From positions 1 to 64,000 of IMG/VR virus record IMGVR_UViG_3300048920_000015: a DNA stretch of 64,000 nt; one strand, 5' to 3'. Source of the DNA: a virus. Below are positions 9,708-18,304 of this stretch, piece by piece (the stretch's first letter is position 1; each line of letters opens with the position of its first letter). Below the pieces are notes generated by a model. That model saw nothing but the letters and a program-made list of their open reading frames with translations. It searched no databases and was not told the DNA's origin. The translations under genes and the position numbers were made by a program.

Positions 9708-9910
9708 AGGTTGTGCTCCAATTGAGTTGCAAAATTGAGGGATTCTTGGGCTTCGTTGGCCATCTTCAGAAACTCTTCAGCCAACTGGCGATCACGTGCG
9801 TTGTGGTAACACTGGAATTCAACACTGCCAGCAGCCCTCAGTGCACGTTCGAGTTTAGCCAGTGTACGTTTTAGGTCTTCAATGATCACATCCTTTGGAT
9901 ATACCATCAC
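9704..9910 (-). CDS. hypothetical protein, 68 aa
   Basis: Track ORF with 4-nt overlaps on both sides. Confidence 0.55.
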   Translation of the reverse strand: MMVYPKDVIIEDLKRTLAKLERALRAAGSVEFQCYHNARDRQLAEEFLKMANEAQESLNFATQLEHNL

Positions 9911-10305
9911 TTTTTACCCTCAATTCGTTTGATTGCTTTGTCGAAGATGTTACGGCCAGCCTTCAGGCCAACCACACCCAGAGATTCAAACTGGTTCTTC
10001 ATTTGGTTTGCAGCGTGGCAGCAAGCTACCACGTTACCCTTCACATAACCTTTGGAGCCGTCGATACGGTCAATGGTGAAGTCCGACAGACGCAGCTCAC
10101 CATTCTCTTCCTTGCCGGTGCTCTTGGTCAAACCGATGCCGGTGTAGTAGCAACGCTTGGCAGACAGCAGGTTCTTCATCGAAGCGATGGTGAGATTGAA
10201 CTCAATGCCACGCTTCTTGGCGTTCTCTGCCTTCCAGACCAGATGCTTCGCAGCATACAGGTCGAACTCGTTTGGAGTCATGTTGAACGGACGTTTTACA
10301 GCCAT
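9907..10305 (-). CDS. HNH endonuclease, 132 aa
   Basis: TIDRIDGSKGYVKGNVVACCHAANQMK matches the DRID..GY..GNV....N..K HNH signature. Trimmed to MAVKRPF. Confidence 0.65.
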   Translation of the reverse strand: MAVKRPFNMTPNEFDLYAAKHLVWKAENAKKRGIEFNLTIASMKNLLSAKRCYYTGIGLTKSTGKEENGELRLSDFTIDRIDGSKGYVKGNVVACCHAANQMKNQFESLGVVGLKAGRNIFDKAIKRIEGKK

Positions 10306-10306
10306 G

Positions 10307-10447
10307 TTATTTGATCCCCAACTGAACGCAGACGACAGTGATAAGAACGGCACCGATTGCCGAGACGATGATACCAGCAGGTTGCTTGTTAGGCAACAAC
10401 ATTGTTACGAGCAAAGCCCAGAGAATGCAGAGGCAGATGGAAACCAT
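10307..10447 (-). CDS. small membrane protein, 46 aa, 2 TM
   Basis: Hand-translated (MVSICLCILWALLVTMLLPNKQPAGIIVSAIGAVLITVVCVQLGIK). AAGGAG RBS. Confidence 0.45.
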   Translation of the reverse strand: MVSICLCILWALLVTMLLPNKQPAGIIVSAIGAVLITVVCVQLGIK

Positions 10448-10463: not shown

Positions 10464-10757
10464 TTATGCGCGTTTCATTTCTTTGATGGTGAAGAATTTA
10501 CCATGCTCTTTGTTCTCAGTCAAGAACTTTCGAGCCAACAGCGCGATGAAATCGTTGCTGATCTTGTAGTCGTTGCCGTAGGTTTTAATCATCGACTCCC
10601 AACGGATACGGTTACAAACCAACCAAGCAGAACTTTTCTTTACACCGCTGTTGATCAGCTCAAGTGTAAACTTTTCGAAGAGTGGGTAGAACTCAGGATT
10701 GAGTTACAGCCAGTCATTGAATTGCTCAGTCAGAGTGCGGCCATCTTTTGCAAGCAT
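10464..10757 (-). pseudogene. 96-codon ORF interrupted by an in-frame TAA at 10704..10706 (MLAKDGRTLTEQFNDWL*LNPEFYPLFEKFTLELINSG...KEMKRA)
   Basis: Re-read base by base. The ATG overlaps the upstream TGA (TGATG). 17 codons precede the TAA. 79 open codons follow it in the same frame, with no start codon near their beginning. Confidence 0.5.
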
Positions 10758-11701
10758 CAGTATGTTTCTCCGTTGTAAGGTTTAAGCAAATGTTGGTTCT
10801 TGTTGAACCTTTCGATGTAGTCATTCTCGCCCAGTTCGTTGTACAGGTCAAGCACTTTCGAGTAATTTTCCCAAGCGTACTCACGGAACCAACCACTGGT
10901 GATACTTGTGCACACCTTCATAAGAGCCATCTCAAAGCTCCAGCGAGCCGAAGGCCCACCCTCCTTACCCAAGCCATGAGGAATCTGCGAACGCTCAAGA
11001 GCGAGCACACAGGACTCTTCATAGACACCGTAAAGGCGAGTCAACTCACTCACGGACATGAACTTCTCTTTGGAAGTCATCACCTCAGAGCCTTCTTTCA
11101 TGTAGAAGGTGTAAGCAGGCACACCCATGACCAAGGCCACAGCCAAGTGGATGCTGTCATGATCGTACACATACTGAACACCATCACCATTGAAGAAGTC
11201 TTTGGAACTGACGTTCAGCTTAGGGTGAGCGTAGTCGTAGGACTCTTTCTCACGCAGCTTCAGAATCTCACGGTTGCGTTCGATCCACTTGATAGGTTGA
11301 CCGCCATTAACCTTGTGACGCAGGAAGTGAATGTCCTGCATAGTCTTCAGGAAGTGCGGACTGTTCCGCTTGTACTTGTGGCTTTCCTTGATCAATAGAA
11401 GATCAAGGTTGCTTGCCGTCACTGGAATCTGCCAGTTGATGGCGTTGTACTCGTTCAGCAGAATCTCAGCAGATGTACCCGGCCAAGCCAGCTCAAACTC
11501 GTAGTTCATGCCGTCTTTGCCACGTGCGTGGTAATACTTCCCGCCGTCAGTTGGGACGGCGAATTGCAGGCGACCTTTGTGGTGTCGATGCCACAGGCGG
11601 AATTGATCCAGAGTGCAGATGAAATCCCAATCAACACACTTGCGTTGGGACTCCAGCTCAGGGTTGTTCGCTACTAGAGCACGGCTACCGATAAGCAACA
11701 T
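10757..11701 (-). CDS. 314-aa protein with a possible Pol-beta-type nucleotidyltransferase N-terminus (IGS-x17-DWD)
   Basis: Track ORF. The G-S...D-x-D spacing resembles minimal NTases. Otherwise unknown. Confidence 0.65.
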   Translation of the reverse strand: MLLIGSRALVANNPELESQRKCVDWDFICTLDQFRLWHRHHKGRLQFAVPTDGGKYYHARGKDGMNYEFELAWPGTSAEILLNEYNAINWQIPVTASNLDLLLIKESHKYKRNSPHFLKTMQDIHFLRHKVNGGQPIKWIERNREILKLREKESYDYAHPKLNVSSKDFFNGDGVQYVYDHDSIHLAVALVMGVPAYTFYMKEGSEVMTSKEKFMSVSELTRLYGVYEESCVLALERSQIPHGLGKEGGPSARWSFEMALMKVCTSITSGWFREYAWENYSKVLDLYNELGENDYIERFNKNQHLLKPYNGETY

Positions 11702-11713
11702 GGTGAATCTCCT

Positions 11714-12391
11714 TTAGACAGGTTTAAGGCCAGCACGACGCATAACCCGGATGTAGTTAGCAGCTTGTGCTTCAAGCTCTTTGATTTGTTGGTTGACATT
11801 CTGCCAGTTGGAGACAGCTTCGTCAAGCGATACTTCTGGCTCAGGCGTAGTAGTGACTTTCTGCTCGGCAACATGCTCGATGTCGTCTACGTGTGCATCC
11901 CAGTCATCTTGATTTGGGAAGTCAACCACGAAGTCATCCCCGCTGGTGCGTACAATCATACCAATATCACCCACTTTAACCTCGCCAGCGCCATAAGCTG
12001 GTTCTTCAGAAATCATGCGAACACGATCACCAATCTTGAAGGGACGATCTTCCCCGGTGACAATCACATCGGTTTTATTCACAGCATCATACTCACCACT
12101 GCTATTGCGAATGACGCCCAGCTTTGTTTGCGATGTGTCTTGCACTCGGCCAGTATAAACCTCACCGTCTCGGTAACGGTAGGTGACGATGTGGCCGCGT
12201 TGGAACTCTTCAAGTTGAACGCTGGTACGGTGATCCAATTTGAAGTTGTCACTGTCGAAAGTGATGTCAGGGTGGCCCTCAAGCCGGATATTGCGGCCAT
12301 GGACCCAGCTCACCTTTTTGATGTCACCTTCGTTAACGCGCATCCAGCTACCAGAGGTACGAACAACCATATCACCGATCTTGAAAGCCAT
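11714..12391 (-). CDS. hypothetical protein, 225 aa, with three SH3/Tudor-like FKIGD-type repeats and a C-terminal coiled coil
   Basis: Trimmed to MAFKIGD (GAGGA RBS, downstream of the promoter at 12422..12450). Internal repeats FKIGDMVVR / FQRGHIVTY / FKIGDRVRM. Confidence 0.65.
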   Translation of the reverse strand: MAFKIGDMVVRTSGSWMRVNEGDIKKVSWVHGRNIRLEGHPDITFDSDNFKLDHRTSVQLEEFQRGHIVTYRYRDGEVYTGRVQDTSQTKLGVIRNSSGEYDAVNKTDVIVTGEDRPFKIGDRVRMISEEPAYGAGEVKVGDIGMIVRTSGDDFVVDFPNQDDWDAHVDDIEHVAEQKVTTTPEPEVSLDEAVSNWQNVNQQIKELEAQAANYIRVMRRAGLKPV

Positions 12392-12421: not shown

Positions 12422-12450
12422 ATGATACGAAAAAGCCTCGAGGCTGTCAA
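12422..12450 (-). promoter_or_regulatory. sigma70-type promoter TTGACA-17-TATCAT, nested in a terminator
   Basis: -35 sits in the loop of hairpin 12435..12459. -10 lies past the T-run. Confidence 0.6.
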
Positions 12451-12459
12451 CCCCGAGGC
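12430..12459 (-). terminator. rho-independent terminator (GCCTCG/CGAGGC plus T5)
   Basis: Follows the stop of 12467..12718. Confidence 0.55.
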
Positions 12460-12466
12460 TCAATCT

Positions 12467-12718
12467 TTAGCAGCTTTGCGAACTGGCGTTCCAGCCAGCA
12501 GTGGTGTAGTAACGGGAGCCGTGATCCTCTACATACTTCTCAGAGTAGTAGGTTCCGCCCATGCCATAACCACCAATGTCCAGATCGAACTCAAGGCCGT
12601 GTTCATCAGCGATGCTCTCAGCTTCGTACACAAGCTTTTGGGCTTGCTCAAGCAGGACAGCAATCTCGTTCAGCTTCTCACGCTTTACAGCGTCTTCACT
12701 CCACATCAGATGTTCCAT
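12467..12718 (-). CDS. W-x-SS-x-C family paralogue A, 83 aa (ends AGWNASSQSC)
   Basis: Track ORF. Shares a helical N-terminus, the L/IxFDLxxGG core and the C-terminal motif with three neighbours. Confidence 0.65.
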   Translation of the reverse strand: MEHLMWSEDAVKREKLNEIAVLLEQAQKLVYEAESIADEHGLEFDLDIGGYGMGGTYYSEKYVEDHGSRYYTTAGWNASSQSC

Positions 12719-13113
12719 CCGAAGTCATAGCCATACTGTGCAGACTGTTCCCACTCAGAGCAAGAGCCAGACGCTTCCCACAGGCTTGCTGGGGTGTATG
12801 TGTTGCTGTCGCCATCACGGTCAGTGAAGGTGAAAGGCAGTTCAGCCGATTCGGCGGTTTCCGAAGCCCACTCTTTGATGAACTCTTCCAGACCGTCAAC
12901 ATCGAAGTCCAGAGCGCCGTCTTCAGGTAGGTTCTGGAGAACCAGAGCCAGTTTTGCAAGGTTGTCCAGCTCATTGTCAGACAGACCTTCCAGAGTGTGG
13001 CTGGTGTAGCTGTAGGCCGAACCGTTGTGGTAGGTGCCTTCGATCAGTTGGGACACCAGAATAACACCAGCGGCCAGTTCAACTTGAGCTTGATTCGTAA
13101 CAGTGCGAGTCAT
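12706..13113 (-). CDS. W-x-SS-x-C family paralogue D, 135 aa (internal LWEASGSC plus a 17-aa extension)
   Basis: Track ORF. Contains ELPFTFTDRDGD...LWEASGSCSEW. Confidence 0.6.
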   Translation of the reverse strand: MTRTVTNQAQVELAAGVILVSQLIEGTYHNGSAYSYTSHTLEGLSDNELDNLAKLALVLQNLPEDGALDFDVDGLEEFIKEWASETAESAELPFTFTDRDGDSNTYTPASLWEASGSCSEWEQSAQYGYDFGWNI

Positions 13114-13136
13114 TTCATTTCTCCTTTGTGGGTTAA

Positions 13137-13592
13137 TTAGCAGTACATAGAACTGGAATCCCAGTCCACAGCATCGATAAGTCGGAAGTCGTTGGTGGTG
13201 CCGCCCACTTTGATGTTGGCTGGAATGTCGTACTTCTTGGCAACAGCCAGAATCTCAGACAGAGTACCTTGAACGCTCTCAGTCAGTTGAGCGACCAAAG
13301 CCACAGCTTCTTGGCGGCCTTTGTTGTAGGCTTCAAGGTCAGCTTTGTACGGGCCGTTGATGTAGGCAATCACCTCTTCAACGGTATACTCAGCAGGAGT
13401 CAGCTCAAAGCTGTACTCATCGTAGCCCATACGCTCAGCGTCAACATAGACGTCGTCGATGTAGCGACCACTCTCACCATAGGTCTGTACTTCCTGACGC
13501 TCAACCTCAACACGGGTTGCACCTTCAAGGGTCAGTTGACCGTGACGAACAGCTTCAGCGATCCACAGCAGATTGGTTAGTGCGTATGTCAT
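13137..13592 (-). CDS. W-x-SS-x-C family paralogue C, 151 aa (ends VDWDSSSMYC)
   Basis: Track ORF. Contains KKYDIPANIKVGGTT...DWDSSSMYC. Confidence 0.65.
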   Translation of the reverse strand: MTYALTNLLWIAEAVRHGQLTLEGATRVEVERQEVQTYGESGRYIDDVYVDAERMGYDEYSFELTPAEYTVEEVIAYINGPYKADLEAYNKGRQEAVALVAQLTESVQGTLSEILAVAKKYDIPANIKVGGTTNDFRLIDAVDWDSSSMYC

Positions 13593-14092
13593 TTATTTTC
13601 CTCCAGATATTTGATTGCGTTTTGTAGTACGTGGAGCTTATCGTACACCAAGCCTAGCATCATGTTGCAGTTTACACATAGGAGTCCACGCACTTTACCA
13701 GTGTCGTGGCAATGATCCACGTGAAACACTCCTTTGCCACCTGCCTCAGTCGTTTCACAAATCCTACACTTAAAATTCTGTCTTTGCAGCATATCAGTGT
13801 ACTCTCCAAATGTCATGCCGTAGTTCTTTTGTAGGTATTGACACTTCCTTCGTTCGTACTCTTTGGTACGACGAGCTTCATCCCACTCAGACTCTCTGGC
13901 AACCCTTTGAGATTGCTTCTTGACTTTATACTCAGGTTTCTTTGCGTATTCAGCTTGCCTTGCCGTCCAACAAGTCTTACAGATATACCTCCTGCTTTTC
14001 TGCATGGAGGGTGTCCAATTCTGATCTGTTAAAGATACAAGACAAACTTTGCATTCAGGATTCAACCTTGGCGGCTGTTTCCTACCAGCCAT
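13589..14092 (-). CDS. recombination endonuclease VII-like nuclease, 167 aa
   Basis: HVDHCHDTGKVRGLLCVNCNMMLG matches the Endonuclease_7 signature. N-terminal Cys pairs. Confidence 0.75.
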   Translation of the reverse strand: MAGRKQPPRLNPECKVCLVSLTDQNWTPSMQKSRRYICKTCWTARQAEYAKKPEYKVKKQSQRVARESEWDEARRTKEYERRKCQYLQKNYGMTFGEYTDMLQRQNFKCRICETTEAGGKGVFHVDHCHDTGKVRGLLCVNCNMMLGLVYDKLHVLQNAIKYLEENK

Positions 14093-14505
14093 TAAGCCTT
14101 TTTACCACCATCTTTCAGGCGATTTTCGACCTTATGATCCTCTCGATTCGCATTGTAGTACAGCTTGTCGATGATCGCACCAGCCAAGTCCCAACCTTCA
14201 TGCCCAGCAAGGTCGAATGCACGGATGATGGCATCTGCCAGTTCAACCTCAGCCATTGGGCGCTCTTTCAAGTGGTCGTCCATCAGACCCTTGCGGACAC
14301 CTTCAACAGCTTCGCTCACTTCAGAGTGAACCAGAGCCAGCTTAGACAGCACCAGAGTTACATCCCCTTTAGGGTGAGCAACACCTGTCTGGATGTTCTT
14401 CCACCAACCAGCGTCTACGTTACCACGATAGATGATCTGTTGCAAGTGGGTCAACGAATCCATGATTCGTGCTACTTCAAATACTTCTGCGTTGTTGATG
14501 CTCAT
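14092..14505 (-). CDS. MazG-like nucleoside triphosphate pyrophosphohydrolase, 137 aa
   Basis: All-alpha EVSEAVEGVRK...EVELADAIIRAFDLA (E..E..E...ELAD) motif pattern. Confidence 0.7.
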   Translation of the reverse strand: MSINNAEVFEVARIMDSLTHLQQIIYRGNVDAGWWKNIQTGVAHPKGDVTLVLSKLALVHSEVSEAVEGVRKGLMDDHLKERPMAEVELADAIIRAFDLAGHEGWDLAGAIIDKLYYNANREDHKVENRLKDGGKKA

Positions 14506-14720
14506 GAGTTGGCAGCACTTTGCATAGCGTTGTAGAAAGCCATCTGAGCACGATCAATCGACTCAGAGTCACCCTCAATCTCAAAACCAAGAGACTTGGC
14601 AGAGGCTTTAGCCTCGCTAACAGCGGCATTACTCAGTGCACGGAGCCAATCAAATTCTGTTTGAGTCTCGATTGTCAGTGTGATAGGCGAGAACAGTGGT
14701 TTACTTTTTACGATTTTCAT
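14502..14720 (-). CDS. hypothetical protein, 72 aa
   Basis: Track ORF. Confidence 0.55.
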   Translation of the reverse strand: MKIVKSKPLFSPITLTIETQTEFDWLRALSNAAVSEAKASAKSLGFEIEGDSESIDRAQMAFYNAMQSAANS

Positions 14721-14739
14721 TTTGAAACCTCCTTAAAAA

Positions 14740-14925
14740 TTAGCAGTTAGAAGAATTCCAGCTATAGCCGGGTTCATATTCGTGAGTGGTGTTGTAGTTA
14801 CGACCACCTTCCAGCTCCAGATCAAACGGGATGCTGTACTCATCCGACAGTTGACGGGCTTGAGCATGTAAGCTTTGGATTTGATCCAGAATCAGGGCGA
14901 TACGGTCAACAGCATACTGCGACAT
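14740..14925 (-). CDS. W-x-SS-x-C family paralogue B, 61 aa (ends YSWNSSNC)
   Basis: Track ORF. Contains EYSIPFDLELEGG...WNSSNC. Confidence 0.6.
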   Translation of the reverse strand: MSQYAVDRIALILDQIQSLHAQARQLSDEYSIPFDLELEGGRNYNTTHEYEPGYSWNSSNC

Positions 14926-15710: not shown

Positions 15711-16050
15711 GTCCTTTCTTGTACGAATCGAAAGCAATTCGTGTGACAGCTTGCGTGTACTCACGTGTCACTAGGTTCTTCGTCAGAGCTTGGCTGTTGT
15801 AAGCGATAAGCTCCGCACCCATTTCAGTCTCAAACTGCCCCTGAAGGGTAGCCAGATTCTCAAGGTCACGTGTGTCCTCAGCGGTATCAAGGAACGTGGC
15901 GTAGACGCGATCCTGAGCCGGTGTGAGGTGGATAGTGAAGTCAGGTGCAACGGTATCATCAGTCAGGACAAGAGTCGCCCCAGTGTTGTCTACGGTTGTA
16001 ACAAGGCTACCACCAGTTGCAAGCACGGTTGTGTTGATTACAGGTGTCAT
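15691..16050 (-). CDS. hypothetical protein, 119 aa
   Basis: Track ORF. Confidence 0.6.
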   Translation of the reverse strand: MTPVINTTVLATGGSLVTTVDNTGATLVLTDDTVAPDFTIHLTPAQDRVYATFLDTAEDTRDLENLATLQGQFETEMGAELIAYNSQALTKNLVTREYTQAVTRIAFDSYKKGLDGPPS

Positions 16051-16592
16051 GTGTTTCTCCTAATCCCGAGATGAATTTTACTGACATGCTGTCGGGATAT
16101 ACCAAACATGGCAGCTATTTTAGATTGTGAGAGTTGACTTTTCAAGGTTTTAATCTCTTCAATCTGAACCTCAGATAGTTTACAAGCTGGGTTAGACTCA
16201 CCCGAGGCAGAGTAGTTCCTACCTTGCGAATGCATGTGATAAGTATTCTCTTTTGGAGTACACCACTCAAGATTGCAAACATTATTGTTTGTTCGGTCGT
16301 TATCAATATGGTTGATAACCTCCTTGCCTTCTACCTTGTCAATAAAATGCTCAGCGACAAGCCGGTGTACCTTCCACACGACATTACGGCCTTGATCTTG
16401 TAGGGTTACCTTACAGTATCCAGCACTATCTGTAGTAGCTTTTAGTGGTCGCCCTCTAAGATTCTTAGTTACAAGTCTACTACAAGCAACCGTGCGATCT
16501 TTCGACCGCACGTTACCCATATTACTGACTTGATAGAAAGATTCGTATCCCTTTACATCAACCCAAGCCTCGATCACTGGCAAACCTCGCAC
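16047..16592 (-). CDS. free-standing HNH homing endonuclease, 181 aa (NUMOD4-like, HNH_3-like and C-terminal HTH regions)
   Basis: WVDVKGYESFYQVSNMGNVRS, HRLVAEHFI...INHIDNDRTNNNVCNLEW and SQSKIAAMFGISRQHVSKI. Overlaps the nrdA 3' end by 19 nt. Confidence 0.8.
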   Translation of the reverse strand: MRGLPVIEAWVDVKGYESFYQVSNMGNVRSKDRTVACSRLVTKNLRGRPLKATTDSAGYCKVTLQDQGRNVVWKVHRLVAEHFIDKVEGKEVINHIDNDRTNNNVCNLEWCTPKENTYHMHSQGRNYSASGESNPACKLSEVQIEEIKTLKSQLSQSKIAAMFGISRQHVSKIHLGIRRNT

Positions 16593-18304
16593 ACTTCCAC
16601 TCTAACAATGTCACCACTACCTCTCATGCTATAGATGTAATACAGAGACAAGATGTTTGGATCGTTGAATGCAATCCTGTGAATCTTGCCGATGTACTCT
16701 GGTGTATCGTTAGAGGTAAAGTAGAGGTTGATACTTTGCCCTTGGTCGATCCACGGTTGACGTTGAGAACACAGACGCAGGTGATCTTCCATTGGAATCT
16801 CAAATCCTGTTCTGAATACAGCTTTCTCTTCGTCGGCCAGCCATGTTACATGTTGGACAGAACCTTTACGCTCGTTCATATCCTTGACGCATTGACTGAT
16901 ATCCAATCCTTTCTTCTTGATCAGTTCCAACAGCACTTTGTTGATGCGGAAGAACTCACCACCAGCGGATTGTTTGGTGAAGCACATGGCAACGTCCAGA
17001 CCAATACCCTCAGAAGCTCCTGCCATCAACTCAGCGGTTGATTTGGTAGGTGGCATCATCAGCATTGTGGCGTTACGTTGTCCAAGCCCTGTGCAGCCGT
17101 CAGGCTCTCCCAGAGTGACAGCCAGCCAAGAGTTGGCAGCGGTAGCATCTTTGAAGATTCCACGGAAGATTTTGGTGTTCAACATCATAGCTTCCATGCT
17201 CGAAACAGACAACATCTCAGCCTGCAACAAAGTGTGGAAACCTAGAACCCCAGAACCCAAGGCACGGAAGTCTTTTGTGAACTTGTAAATCTTCTGCATA
17301 GCACGCTTGTCCATCGGCGTCATTTCATCCATGCACTCCAGATACTCAGAGATGTTACAGTCACTCATAACTTGACCAACAAACACCAAGTGTTCAGGCC
17401 AACTACGGTAAAGTTCCAAGTTGTAGTTCAGGATTACACAACTGAATGTGTACTCATGGTTTGCTGGCAAGTTTGTCTCTTGGCAAAGGTTGCTAGCTCT
17501 TGCACGTAGTCCAGCACGTTTAAATGCTTTAGCCAGCTTACGGTTCATCTTATCAATGAACGAGAAGTATCCTTTACCACGTGGCATCTTAATACCAAGC
17601 ATCTTAGCAAACTTGCGAAGGGCTTCAGGGTCTTCAGCGTTCATCTGGTCTGTAAACTCATCGTCAATCAACCAGCCAACGTTATTACTCTCTGTGCGTT
17701 CGTACAGGAAGTCTGCAACCTTATCAAAATCCCCATGTTGAGGACGTAGGCTGTAAGCACACGATCCACGGCGTGGCCCTTGAGCTACCTCTTCCATAAC
17801 GTTGATGATGTCACGTACCAGCGGCATAAGCCCCTGAGAACGTCCACCACGAATCTTGTCACCCTCGGCAGGCCAGTCATCAAGGCAGTAGCTTGTGCCA
17901 TGGCTGTGCTTCGTCAGGATAGCAGCTTCTGTGAGAAAGTCGTAACGGTCAAACAGGTTGTTGCCAACGTTACCACCAGCACAGCTTACAGTAGTTCCGC
18001 GTTTACGGATACCGCCGTTTGCCAGCAGTGGTGTAGAGGGGCTAATGAAGCCGTCCCACATAGTCTGGAAGAATGCGTCTTCCCATGTTTTGCCCGCCCA
18101 GTAAGGGTTTGTATTCCACCACTCAGGGTACACTTCAGGAGCGTGCTTTGCCATAGCTTGAGCTACACTTCTGAAGCGGCTCTTTACTGTTTCGTTGTTG
18201 TACGAATACTTGTCGTAGAACAACTGGATACCTCCGGTAGTGTACCACGGTGGGCACACTCCGTCTTCAATTTGTTGCTTTCTTAGTGCAGAGTAGTCAA
18301 TCAT
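16574..18304 (-). CDS. nrdA: ribonucleotide reductase large subunit (class I, no ATP-cone), 576 aa
   Basis: SNLCQETNLP (NLCxE active site), GSGVLGFH, PPTKSTA, and a C-terminal CEVC pair. Confidence 0.9.
   Translation of the reverse strand: MIDYSALRKQQIEDGVCPPWYTTGGIQLFYDKYSYNNETVKSRFRSVAQAMAKHAPEVYPEWWNTNPYWAGKTWEDAFFQTMWDGFISPSTPLLANGGIRKRGTTVSCAGGNVGNNLFDRYDFLTEAAILTKHSHGTSYCLDDWPAEGDKIRGGRSQGLMPLVRDIINVMEEVAQGPRRGSCAYSLRPQHGDFDKVADFLYERTESNNVGWLIDDEFTDQMNAEDPEALRKFAKMLGIKMPRGKGYFSFIDKMNRKLAKAFKRAGLRARASNLCQETNLPANHEYTFSCVILNYNLELYRSWPEHLVFVGQVMSDCNISEYLECMDEMTPMDKRAMQKIYKFTKDFRALGSGVLGFHTLLQAEMLSVSSMEAMMLNTKIFRGIFKDATAANSWLAVTLGEPDGCTGLGQRNATMLMMPPTKSTAELMAGASEGIGLDVAMCFTKQSAGGEFFRINKVLLELIKKKGLDISQCVKDMNERKGSVQHVTWLADEEKAVFRTGFEIPMEDHLRLCSQRQPWIDQGQSINLYFTSNDTPEYIGKIHRIAFNDPNILSLYYIYSMRGSGDIVRVEVCEVCQ

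Follow-up and report, generated by a model that had tools for sequence, protein, structure and literature searches.

Small acidic phage proteins with an exactly terminal cysteine form a conserved gene module with a probable nucleotidyltransferase

Four open reading frames and their cysteine tails

The stretch of DNA analyzed here, called the window below, comprises positions 1 to 64,000 of the IMG/VR virus record IMGVR_UViG_3300048920_000015 and belongs to a Pseudomonas phage (Otagovirus group); over the aligned parts it is ~87% identical to phage VCM. Its minus strand carries four small open reading frames (ORFs), here named P1 to P4, and, downstream of them, a partner gene encoding the Pfam domains DUF7277 and DUF7275 (Table 1). 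The original prediction, made from the sequence alone, had described the four ORFs as a paralogue family with a shared C-terminal motif, and the ORFs, their ends and the TGC TAA codons that it listed were all recovered from the ORF listing and the sequence. TGC TAA forms the last codons of P1 (GWNASSQSC), P3 (DWDSSSMYC) and P4 (SWNSSNC), and in P2 the sequence LWEASGSC is followed by 17 more residues that end in GWNI. The exact terminal pattern W-x-[AS]-S-x(1-3)-C is thus present in P1, P3 and P4 and absent from P2, which has an internal copy and the GWNI end. A six-frame scan of the 64-kb window for W[NDE][AS]S at most 8 codons from the stop of an ORF longer than 30 amino acids returned only P1, P3 and P4; as judged from the sequence, the tail motif is not a chance similarity.

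Table 1. Positions and properties of the module genes and associated features (window coordinates unless a locus is named)
Feature	Position	Strand	Description
P1	12467..12706	minus	79 aa, canonical member: predicted long N-terminal helix, LEFDLDIGGYGMGG, acidic linker, GWNASSQSC-COOH
P2	12706..13113	minus	135 aa, divergent: internal W-E-A-S-G-S-C-S-E-W-E-Q-S-A-Q, truncated terminal repeat GWNI-stop
P3	13137..13592	minus	151 aa, N-terminal extension of ~90 aa, VDWDSSSMYC-COOH end
P4	14740..14925	minus	61 aa, minimal member, SWNSSNC-COOH end, short W-to-C spacing
Partner gene	10757..11701	minus	314 aa, DUF7277 (E=1e-19) + DUF7275 (E=7e-72), Pfam; PHROG 2141
Terminator-like hairpin and promoter-like site	12422..12461	minus	13-bp stem, T-run; TTGACA-17-TATCAT; directly past P1 stop
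PHROG 4317 gene (function not assigned)	11714..12391	minus	225 aa, between array and partner gene
Endonuclease VII-family gene	13589..14092	minus	Pfam Endonuclease_7 E=4.7e-24; between MazG-like gene and P3
MazG-like pyrophosphatase	14092..14505	minus	PHROG 5658 E=2.7e-73; between P4 and P3
Short-form-linked small proteins	L092 4115-4453; L146 4283-4576, 4573-5043; L147 3202-3498		shared KTIT-type C-terminus

The first ORF had been taken to extend from 12467 to 12718. An ORF of that extent exists, but its start is better placed at 12706, giving a protein of 79 amino acids that begins MWSEDAV. The ATG at 12706 overlaps the TGA of the upstream gene (TGATG), 70 of 80 P1 orthologues start at, or downstream of, the corresponding Met, and a separate gene call, made on a contig of identical sequence, likewise gave 79 amino acids; because of these observations, 12706 and not 12718 is most likely the start of P1. 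Among the 80 orthologues the tail was nearly invariant and strictly terminal.

We assessed the paralogy of the four ORFs with profiles built from database relatives of P1 only, with the window genes left out. The profile recovered P1 (expectation value, E=1e-37) and P4 (E=5e-6) and gave P3 a marginal score; P2 had no significant score against it. Orthologues of each ORF were also gathered from related contigs, and their profiles were compared with 148 distant family representatives using hhalign. The P4 profile matched at 97.5% probability (E=7e-12) and the P3 profile at 93.5% (E=2e-7), the latter collinear through the terminal Cys, and P3 orthologues keep DW[DN]SSSMYC before the stop. The match of the P2 profile was weaker (68.9%, E=4.5e-5). 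Because its GWN aligned with the GWN of the family and its orthologues (n=11) keep the internal motif and the end, WE.SG.C(S)EWE.SA....GW[ND][IVL]-stop, P2 is, by this sequence comparison, a divergent member with an internal motif copy and a truncated terminal one. The four ORFs are therefore true paralogues, as had been proposed, but a membership of four understated the family, which holds ~1000 clusters at 50% identity. The long N-terminal helix followed by an h-x-F strand is recognizable by the family profile in the window members; the (I/L)xFxLxxGG core ascribed to all four is found in P1 (LEFDLDIGGYGMGG) and P4 (IPFDLELEGG) and not in P3 (IPANIKVGG) or P2 (LPFTFTDRDG). An ORF of 72 amino acids on the minus strand (14502-14720), which has a helix and LGFEIEG and lacks the Cys tail, was rejected as a fifth member (hhalign 19%, E=1.2e-3); it is possibly a degenerate relative.

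An exhaustive family profile search of 1.84 billion representatives, clustered at 50% identity, yielded 987 family clusters at E<=1e-3, of which 483 remained at E<=1e-10. The Cys was exactly terminal in 146 of the best 148 representatives, and the other two had one extra residue. Word-indexed searches found relatives only in phage-like contigs. Among 122 unique ORFs from phage loci, 119 ended in Cys, with a W-to-C spacing of 7 residues in 99 and of 5 in 18, and only 32 kept a YGMGG-like loop. Thus, the universal feature of the family is the Cys tail rather than the Gly-rich loop. The same 122 proteins have a median isoelectric point (pI) of 4.4 and strongly acidic linkers, contain one Cys per paralogue and lack CxxC. 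In the canonical layout, a long helix ending in AE-x-IADE is followed by an h-x-F strand, Y-G-M-G-G-x-[YF], a variable acidic linker and G-W-x-[AS]-S-S-x-x-C. The family hallmark is W-x-[AS/P]-S-[SA]-x-x-C-COOH, with a shorter variant, W-x-S-S-x-C, and the motif is sometimes doubled within one protein (e.g. WNSSGCEWESSGC...GWNSSSAHC). These proteins constitute a large family of small acidic proteins that occurs almost exclusively in phage sequences. At one locus (L083, 4384-5999), five tandem ORFs with FW[IV]PSSM[ES]C ends lie upstream of the partner gene and were missed by the family hidden Markov model (HMM), so the family is broader than the profile counts suggest. In a metagenomic member of 153 amino acids (P0220), the N-terminal part resembles residues 376-439 of UvrB (E=2e-15); this member may be a chimeric assembly or a gene-fragment fusion.

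The original prediction was unable to place the family, and neither could we: sequence searches of Pfam, NCBIfam, PADLOC, PHROG and PDB and fold searches led to no characterized family, and the tail proved to be conserved far beyond related phages. The small proteins had no match above noise in Pfam, NCBIfam or PADLOC. P1 and P4 matched PHROG 899 (E=1.8e-21 and E=2e-5, respectively), P2 matched PHROG 17937 and P3 matched PHROG 23943, three groups that have no assigned function; the separate groups for P2 and P3 mean that their paralogy to P1 and P4 is not captured in PHROG. A PDB profile search with the small proteins returned only designed helical proteins, matched via the helix, which we discounted. 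The AlphaFold2 model of P1 (mean predicted local distance difference test score, pLDDT, 85.8) has a helix at residues 4-36 and strands at 39-42, 51-54 and 71-74. In this confidently predicted small fold, a single long helix packs against a sheet of three strands, the third of which is GWNA. Foldseek found no fold match for this model in PDB, and in BFVD it matched only uncharacterized phage proteins of the same family, including RB69 ORF139c. Conservation in these sequences is highest at the terminal Cys that follows the Trp/Ser motif, which would fit a chemically or sterically special C-terminus.

Linkage to a probable nucleotidyltransferase gene

In the window, the P1 stop at 12467 lies upstream of the partner gene start at 11701 on the same strand. 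We examined this arrangement from both sides. The first set comprised 80 IMG/VR loci anchored on the partner gene, in which family members were called with the family HMM at E<=0.01. All 131 matches around the partner gene were on its strand, 126 of them upstream and 5 downstream. At least one match was found in 69 of the 80 loci, with the nearest copy at a median of 482 nt from the start of the partner gene, and most of the other loci had, upstream, ORFs with this tail that escaped the HMM (e.g. L083, with five copies). The number of upstream copies per locus was 1-5 by HMM; overall, the module has 1-6 tandem copies located 0-1.6 kb upstream. Stenotrophomonas phage IME-SM1 is an exception, with family matches downstream. 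When same-strand ORFs within 4.5 kb were clustered by BLAST, the tail family was present in 68 of the 80 loci and the next cluster in 22. The second set comprised 40 loci anchored on the small proteins, found with a narrower family alignment and including 28 contigs that were not in the first set. The partner gene lay downstream on the same strand, within 1.6 kb, in 38 of these, which is 38 of the 38 informative loci, as the contigs of the remaining two break off within 760 nt on that side. Thus, the small gene or genes and a single DUF7277+DUF7275 gene form a near-obligatory two-gene module of fixed orientation, with the small gene(s) upstream.

The same arrangement was seen in Ralstonia phage RSP15, a Tegunavirus, Klebsiella phage Marfa, Phapecoctavirus ESCO37, Shewanella phage Thanatos-1, Mosigvirus LH01 (three copies, lh_137-139, ending in WISSSQMC, WFSSSMSC and WVSSSYSC, with lh_135 as the partner gene), Acinetobacter phage Acj9 (three copies), a metagenomic contig and loci L006 and L091. 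Module-bearing phages thus include T4-like phages, Otagovirus, Phapecoctavirus and jumbo phages. Homologues of the partner protein number ~2200 and were found in more than 700 phage records, among them RB69-like coliphages (Mosigvirus), Acinetobacter, Klebsiella, Aeromonas and Pseudomonas phages and jumbo phages. With one genome scanned per species, 185,579 bacterial and archaeal species yielded only 5 homologues, all on contigs of metagenome-assembled genomes, and 3 of the 5 had upstream family members. Neither a family member nor the partner gene was found in the first 78 kb of T4. The LH01 module lies between an e.3-like gene and nudE, an interval that in T4 holds only e.2 (67652-67960), so T4 appears to lack the module there. 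T4 tk.1 was rejected as a homologue, since it gave a weak helix match only (E=0.09) and has no tail. At two loci (L113 and L114, 5839-7162), the stop-free frame of the partner gene runs ~250 nt further upstream, across a family ORF read in a different frame, which could reflect a frameshift or a fusion.

The sequence and predicted structure of the partner protein suggest that it is probably a nucleotidyltransferase, and we refer to it as the enzyme. Four homologues from very different phages were 44-51% identical. In 34 diverse N-terminal domains, G5, S6, D24 and D26 were invariant and E68 was conserved in at least 90%; we take G5-S6, D24-x-D26 and E68 to be the hG[GS]...D-x-D motif plus third carboxylate of the Pol-beta-type nucleotidyltransferase pattern. 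Homologues are labeled 'nucleotidyltransferase' in two GenBank records, those of phages REC and 16Q. The AlphaFold2 model (pLDDT 83) has an N-terminal domain of mixed strands and helices and an all-helical C-terminal domain. It had no significant Foldseek match in PDB; the six best weak ones (E 0.09-0.4) were CCA-adding enzymes. PDB profile searches with the full-length protein and with the N-terminal domain were empty, and no known nucleotidyltransferase Pfam model matched the enzyme. Kinship with T4 NrdC.11/RlaP was rejected (hhalign probability 0.1%), and the Pfam RlaP model matched only T4 NrdC.11. In several unrelated phages, tRNA or RNA ligase genes adjoin the enzyme gene: Thanatos-1 (L093 4456-4603), Abscondus (L146 5536-7663), Annadreamy (L092 1549-2208) and RSP15 (L096 6563-7585).

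Conservation within the enzyme also varied with the presence of the tail. Seven residues, Cys264, R150, Y157, H159, P160, S269 and R273, were conserved in 100% of 79 enzymes of the module-bearing set, with Cys264 lying in the sequence K-V-C-T-S-I-T-S-G-W-F-R of the DUF7275 domain. Short-form DUF7275-type enzymes of 251-263 amino acids are encoded by Streptomyces phage Annadreamy, Gordonia phage Abscondus and the KVP40-like Vibrio phage phi-pp2. All three have Ile at position 264 and replacements at the other six of these residues; they keep the putative catalytic residues G5, S6, D24, D26, K105, H108 and K119 as well as H181, D182, H185, E228, E229, E236 and R237. No ORF with a family HMM match (E<=1) or the tail pattern was found within 3.5 kb at the three loci. 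Such a pattern would be expected if the Cys264 surface were a docking or reaction site for the Cys-tailed proteins. Each short form adjoins a small protein (~100-155 amino acids) of another family with a common C-terminus, R-Y-F...G-Y-Y-x-S...E-V-x-P-x-x-K-T-I-T-x-Y, which suggests that the enzyme family generally works with a small protein partner. The short-form enzymes and the KTIT-tailed proteins look like a second pairing of an enzyme with a small partner.

Neighboring genes and transcription signals

The Endonuclease VII, MazG-like and glutaredoxin-like genes that had been reported as interleaved with the four ORFs were confirmed (Table 1; Pfam Glutaredoxin, E=2.9e-13). As general functional partners of the module, all three were rejected, since they are lineage-specific and no such neighbor cluster occurred in more than 22 of the 80 loci. 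P4 starts 2 nt past the glutaredoxin stop codon, an adjacency that was found only in Otagovirus-like loci. The MazG-like gene is absent near the module in most other lineages and is context rather than a conserved part of it. The Endonuclease VII gene looks like a mobile insertion, because it is missing from this position in the syntenic locus of phage VCM. The PHROG 4317 gene is likewise lineage-specific and confined to Otagovirus-like loci. In other module-bearing phages, genes for nicotinamide adenine dinucleotide (NAD) salvage or Sir2-like proteins lie close by. A phage MazG-like enzyme, Atd1, is reported to counter TIR-STING toxicity by depleting (p)ppGpp (bioRxiv 10.1101/2022.06.09.495361). 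The position of the module among early accessory genes suggests a part in host takeover or counter-defense.

The strong hairpin directly past the P1 stop overlaps the promoter-like site, which is of the sigma-70 type, with the TTGACA -35 element in the loop and the TATCAT -10 element downstream. Across the 80 loci, terminator-like hairpins were found at most 75 nt downstream of 24 of 131 family ORFs, as compared to 98 of 1608 other ORFs (odds ratio 3.5, p=5e-6), frequently behind the final copy ahead of the enzyme gene. Being pattern matches only, the hairpins would agree with a higher production of the small proteins than of the enzyme. The design of a hairpin with TTGACA was also seen in the related contigs L009, L010, L013, L019 and L023.

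Further from the module, a NUMOD4/HNH_3 homing-endonuclease-like gene (16047-16592, minus strand) overlaps the 3' end of the ribonucleotide reductase large-subunit gene (16574-18304). An ORF at 9907-10353 (minus strand) matched both an HNH endonuclease (E=5e-43) and the Srd anti-sigma factor / sigma-70 decoy (E=1e-18) in PHROG and had no Pfam match.

Possible roles of the tail and comparison with known systems

We tentatively favor the idea that the small proteins are dedicated partners of the enzyme through their Cys tail, and most probably its substrates or carriers. The Trp would anchor the tail within a conserved pocket of the enzyme, and the Ser-Ser-x-x-Cys end would face the active site. 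There the tail might undergo covalent modification, with a nucleotidyl or other phosphoryl-linked group attached to Ser or Cys; alternatively, the carboxylate of the terminal Cys might be activated. Thiol-thiol chemistry may also take place between the terminal Cys and Cys264 of the enzyme. Each paralogue could owe a target or role of its own in the infected cell to its variable N-terminal helix or extension, and the hairpin past the last small gene could keep the transcripts of the small proteins in excess over those of the enzyme. We favor a substrate or carrier because nucleophile residues are invariant on a Trp-anchored terminal peptide, the motif can be doubled within one protein, several diversified copies accompany each enzyme, and hairpins part the small genes from the enzyme gene. 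The original prediction had suggested a modification, metal or thiol-chemistry site at the tail; a metal or thiol site may exist there, and of our data only the co-variation of the invariant Cys264 in the enzyme bears on such a site. It is also conceivable, though we regard it as somewhat doubtful, that the module is a new phage system of protein modification or tagging, in which the enzyme, with its catalytic-type Cys, would act on the SSxxC tail of diversified proteins and the modified proteins or conjugates would hit host targets during infection. The tail might in that case be nucleotidylated, have its carboxylate activated or form a thiol-linked intermediate, and such chemistry and such a tag would have no described counterpart.

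Several observations count against a role of the tail as substrate or carrier. AlphaFold2 places GWNA as a strand inside the fold (pLDDT ~70) rather than in a free tail. Some paralogues, namely P2 and Acj9 gp077, have no Cys tail and so cannot be substrates at that site. The assignment of the enzyme draws on a motif, a predicted topology and weak fold matches (best E=0.09), and the co-variation is based on just three short-form enzymes. Because the short form exists without Cys-tailed proteins, the enzyme seems to have an activity of its own. The vicinity of RNA genes hints that this activity may be on RNA, but it was inconsistent across the 80 loci. We infer both the modification of the tail and the contact between small protein and enzyme.

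In a different explanation, the small proteins would act like regulators or antitoxins that bind the enzyme and inhibit or gate it. The Cys tail would then be an unmodified pseudosubstrate or a metal-capping 'cysteine switch', and the true substrate of the enzyme would lie elsewhere, e.g. in host or phage RNA. A small acidic gene followed, on the same strand, by a nucleotidyltransferase-like gene is reminiscent of the gene order in nucleotidyltransferase-based antitoxin-toxin pairs such as AbiE, MenAT and MntA-HepT. Binding would account for the linkage and the Cys264 co-variation no less well than modification; that short-form enzymes function without Cys-tailed proteins, that the weak fold matches are to CCA-adding enzymes and that tRNA or RNA ligase genes are near in some phages would also agree with such a role. 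However, antitoxins do not usually come in 2-6 diversified copies per enzyme, and it is equally unusual for a terminator-like hairpin to separate them from the gene of their partner. A doubled tail motif is also hard to square with a single-site inhibitor, and PADLOC and Pfam gave no AbiEii/DUF1814 or MNT match. We regard regulation of this kind as rather unlikely.

It appears quite improbable that the small proteins are independent acidic effectors of host takeover or anti-defense, such as DNA or protein mimics, merely co-inherited with the enzyme gene in a cassette. Their median pI of 4.4 and strongly acidic linkers would suit such effectors, their diversified N-terminal parts fit an arms race, and the early accessory setting includes a MazG-like gene here and NAD-salvage or Sir2-like genes elsewhere. 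Yet the two-way linkage to one gene survives where all other neighbors differ, and the co-variation of enzyme residues with the presence of the small proteins speaks for a direct coupling. Mimic proteins are not known to carry an invariant Cys at their very end. A counter-defense role, which would be in keeping with independent effectors, has been reported for MazG-like phage genes (bioRxiv 10.1101/2022.06.09.495361). Two further ideas are the least probable and, by our estimate, very unlikely: the neighboring glutaredoxin would service the terminal Cys as a redox or metal site, or the small proteins would be lanthipeptide-like precursors of the aminovinyl-cysteine (AviCys) type. The start of P4 just past the glutaredoxin stop would speak for the former, but that adjacency is restricted to Otagovirus-like loci, and the proteins have one Cys each and no CxxC. 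Ser-rich tails ending in Cys are superficially like AviCys-forming lantibiotic precursors, and several such 'precursor' copies occur per locus. No LanB/C/M/D, radical-SAM or YcaO domain was present among the neighbors scanned, however, and the small proteins are predicted to fold as small domains. The pattern recognized by EpiD at the C-terminus is hydrophobic, which the last residues [QSH]-[SNMT]-C do not fit.

Both families have so far been annotated only as 'hypothetical protein', and their pairing turns them into one testable system, with the terminal Cys, the Ser pair, the Trp, the D-x-D motif of the enzyme and Cys264 as experimental handles. The module is carried by many therapeutic-candidate phages, and RB69-like coliphages offer tractable genetics. 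If the tail is indeed modified or a tag, the module would represent a new virus-encoded post-translational chemistry; if the small proteins instead gate an RNA-directed nucleotidyltransferase, it would represent a new regulatory logic by which phages control host or phage RNA.

The closest database entries for the pair are PHROG 899, PHROG 2141 and PF23942 plus PF23940, where the partner protein matches above the curated cut-offs and no function is assigned. Our literature search found no paper on PHROG 899/2141, on DUF7277/DUF7275 or on their pairing, and searches for the YGMGG motif, or for a C-terminal cysteine together with nucleotidyltransferase and phage, gave nothing relevant. As in AbiEi/AbiEii, MenA/MenT and MntA/HepT, a small gene precedes, in the same orientation, a gene whose G-S...D-x-D pattern resembles that of the Pol-beta type. 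In contrast to those systems, the module is phage-borne, has up to 6 diversified small genes and a Cys-terminal motif that they lack, and neither the enzyme nor the small proteins gave a DUF1814/AbiEii, MNT, HEPN or AbiEi match in Pfam or PADLOC.

Tags and carriers with an exact functional C-terminus include the ubiquitin-like proteins, ThiS and MoaD with E1, MccA with MccB (microcin C), and scaffold peptides that end in Cys, such as TglA. By analogy, the module shares with them a conserved last residue, an adjacent gene for a presumed nucleotide-using enzyme with a conserved Cys, and the order with the small gene first. Unlike them, the C-terminus is SSxxC rather than GG or N; compared with the ubiquitin-like/ThiS-MoaD type, the predicted fold is a helix with a three-stranded sheet rather than a beta-grasp, and the partner is not ThiF/E1 by Pfam. 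Arrays of ribosomally synthesized and post-translationally modified peptides (RiPPs), with several LanA genes and one enzyme, likewise have a constant element in the small genes, a single enzyme gene and an attenuator-like hairpin between. Here, however, the tail is constant and the body variable, the proteins are predicted to fold, and there is no known RiPP enzyme domain; none of LanB, LanC, LanM, LanKC or LanD-type (HFCD) was found among the Pfam-scanned neighbors in the window, LH01, Acj9, L090 and L091. Proteins of the thioredoxin/glutaredoxin fold differ in that the small proteins have a single Cys, no CxxC/CxxS site, no Pfam match and another predicted fold. Phage nucleotidyltransferases of the NrdC.11/RlaP type, which make competitor cyclic dinucleotides (Ho et al., bioRxiv 10.1101/2022.06.09.495361), resemble the enzyme in being phage-encoded, in its putative Pol-beta type and in lying in accessory regions with MazG-like pyrophosphatases close by, but they belong to an unrelated family, and Ho et al. 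describe no Cys-tailed partners (bioRxiv 10.1101/2022.06.09.495361). Because each of these nearest analogies fails in a defining feature, the module appears to be undescribed and outside the known kinds, although it could prove to be a variant of the nucleotidyltransferase toxin-antitoxin, E1-tag or RiPP type.

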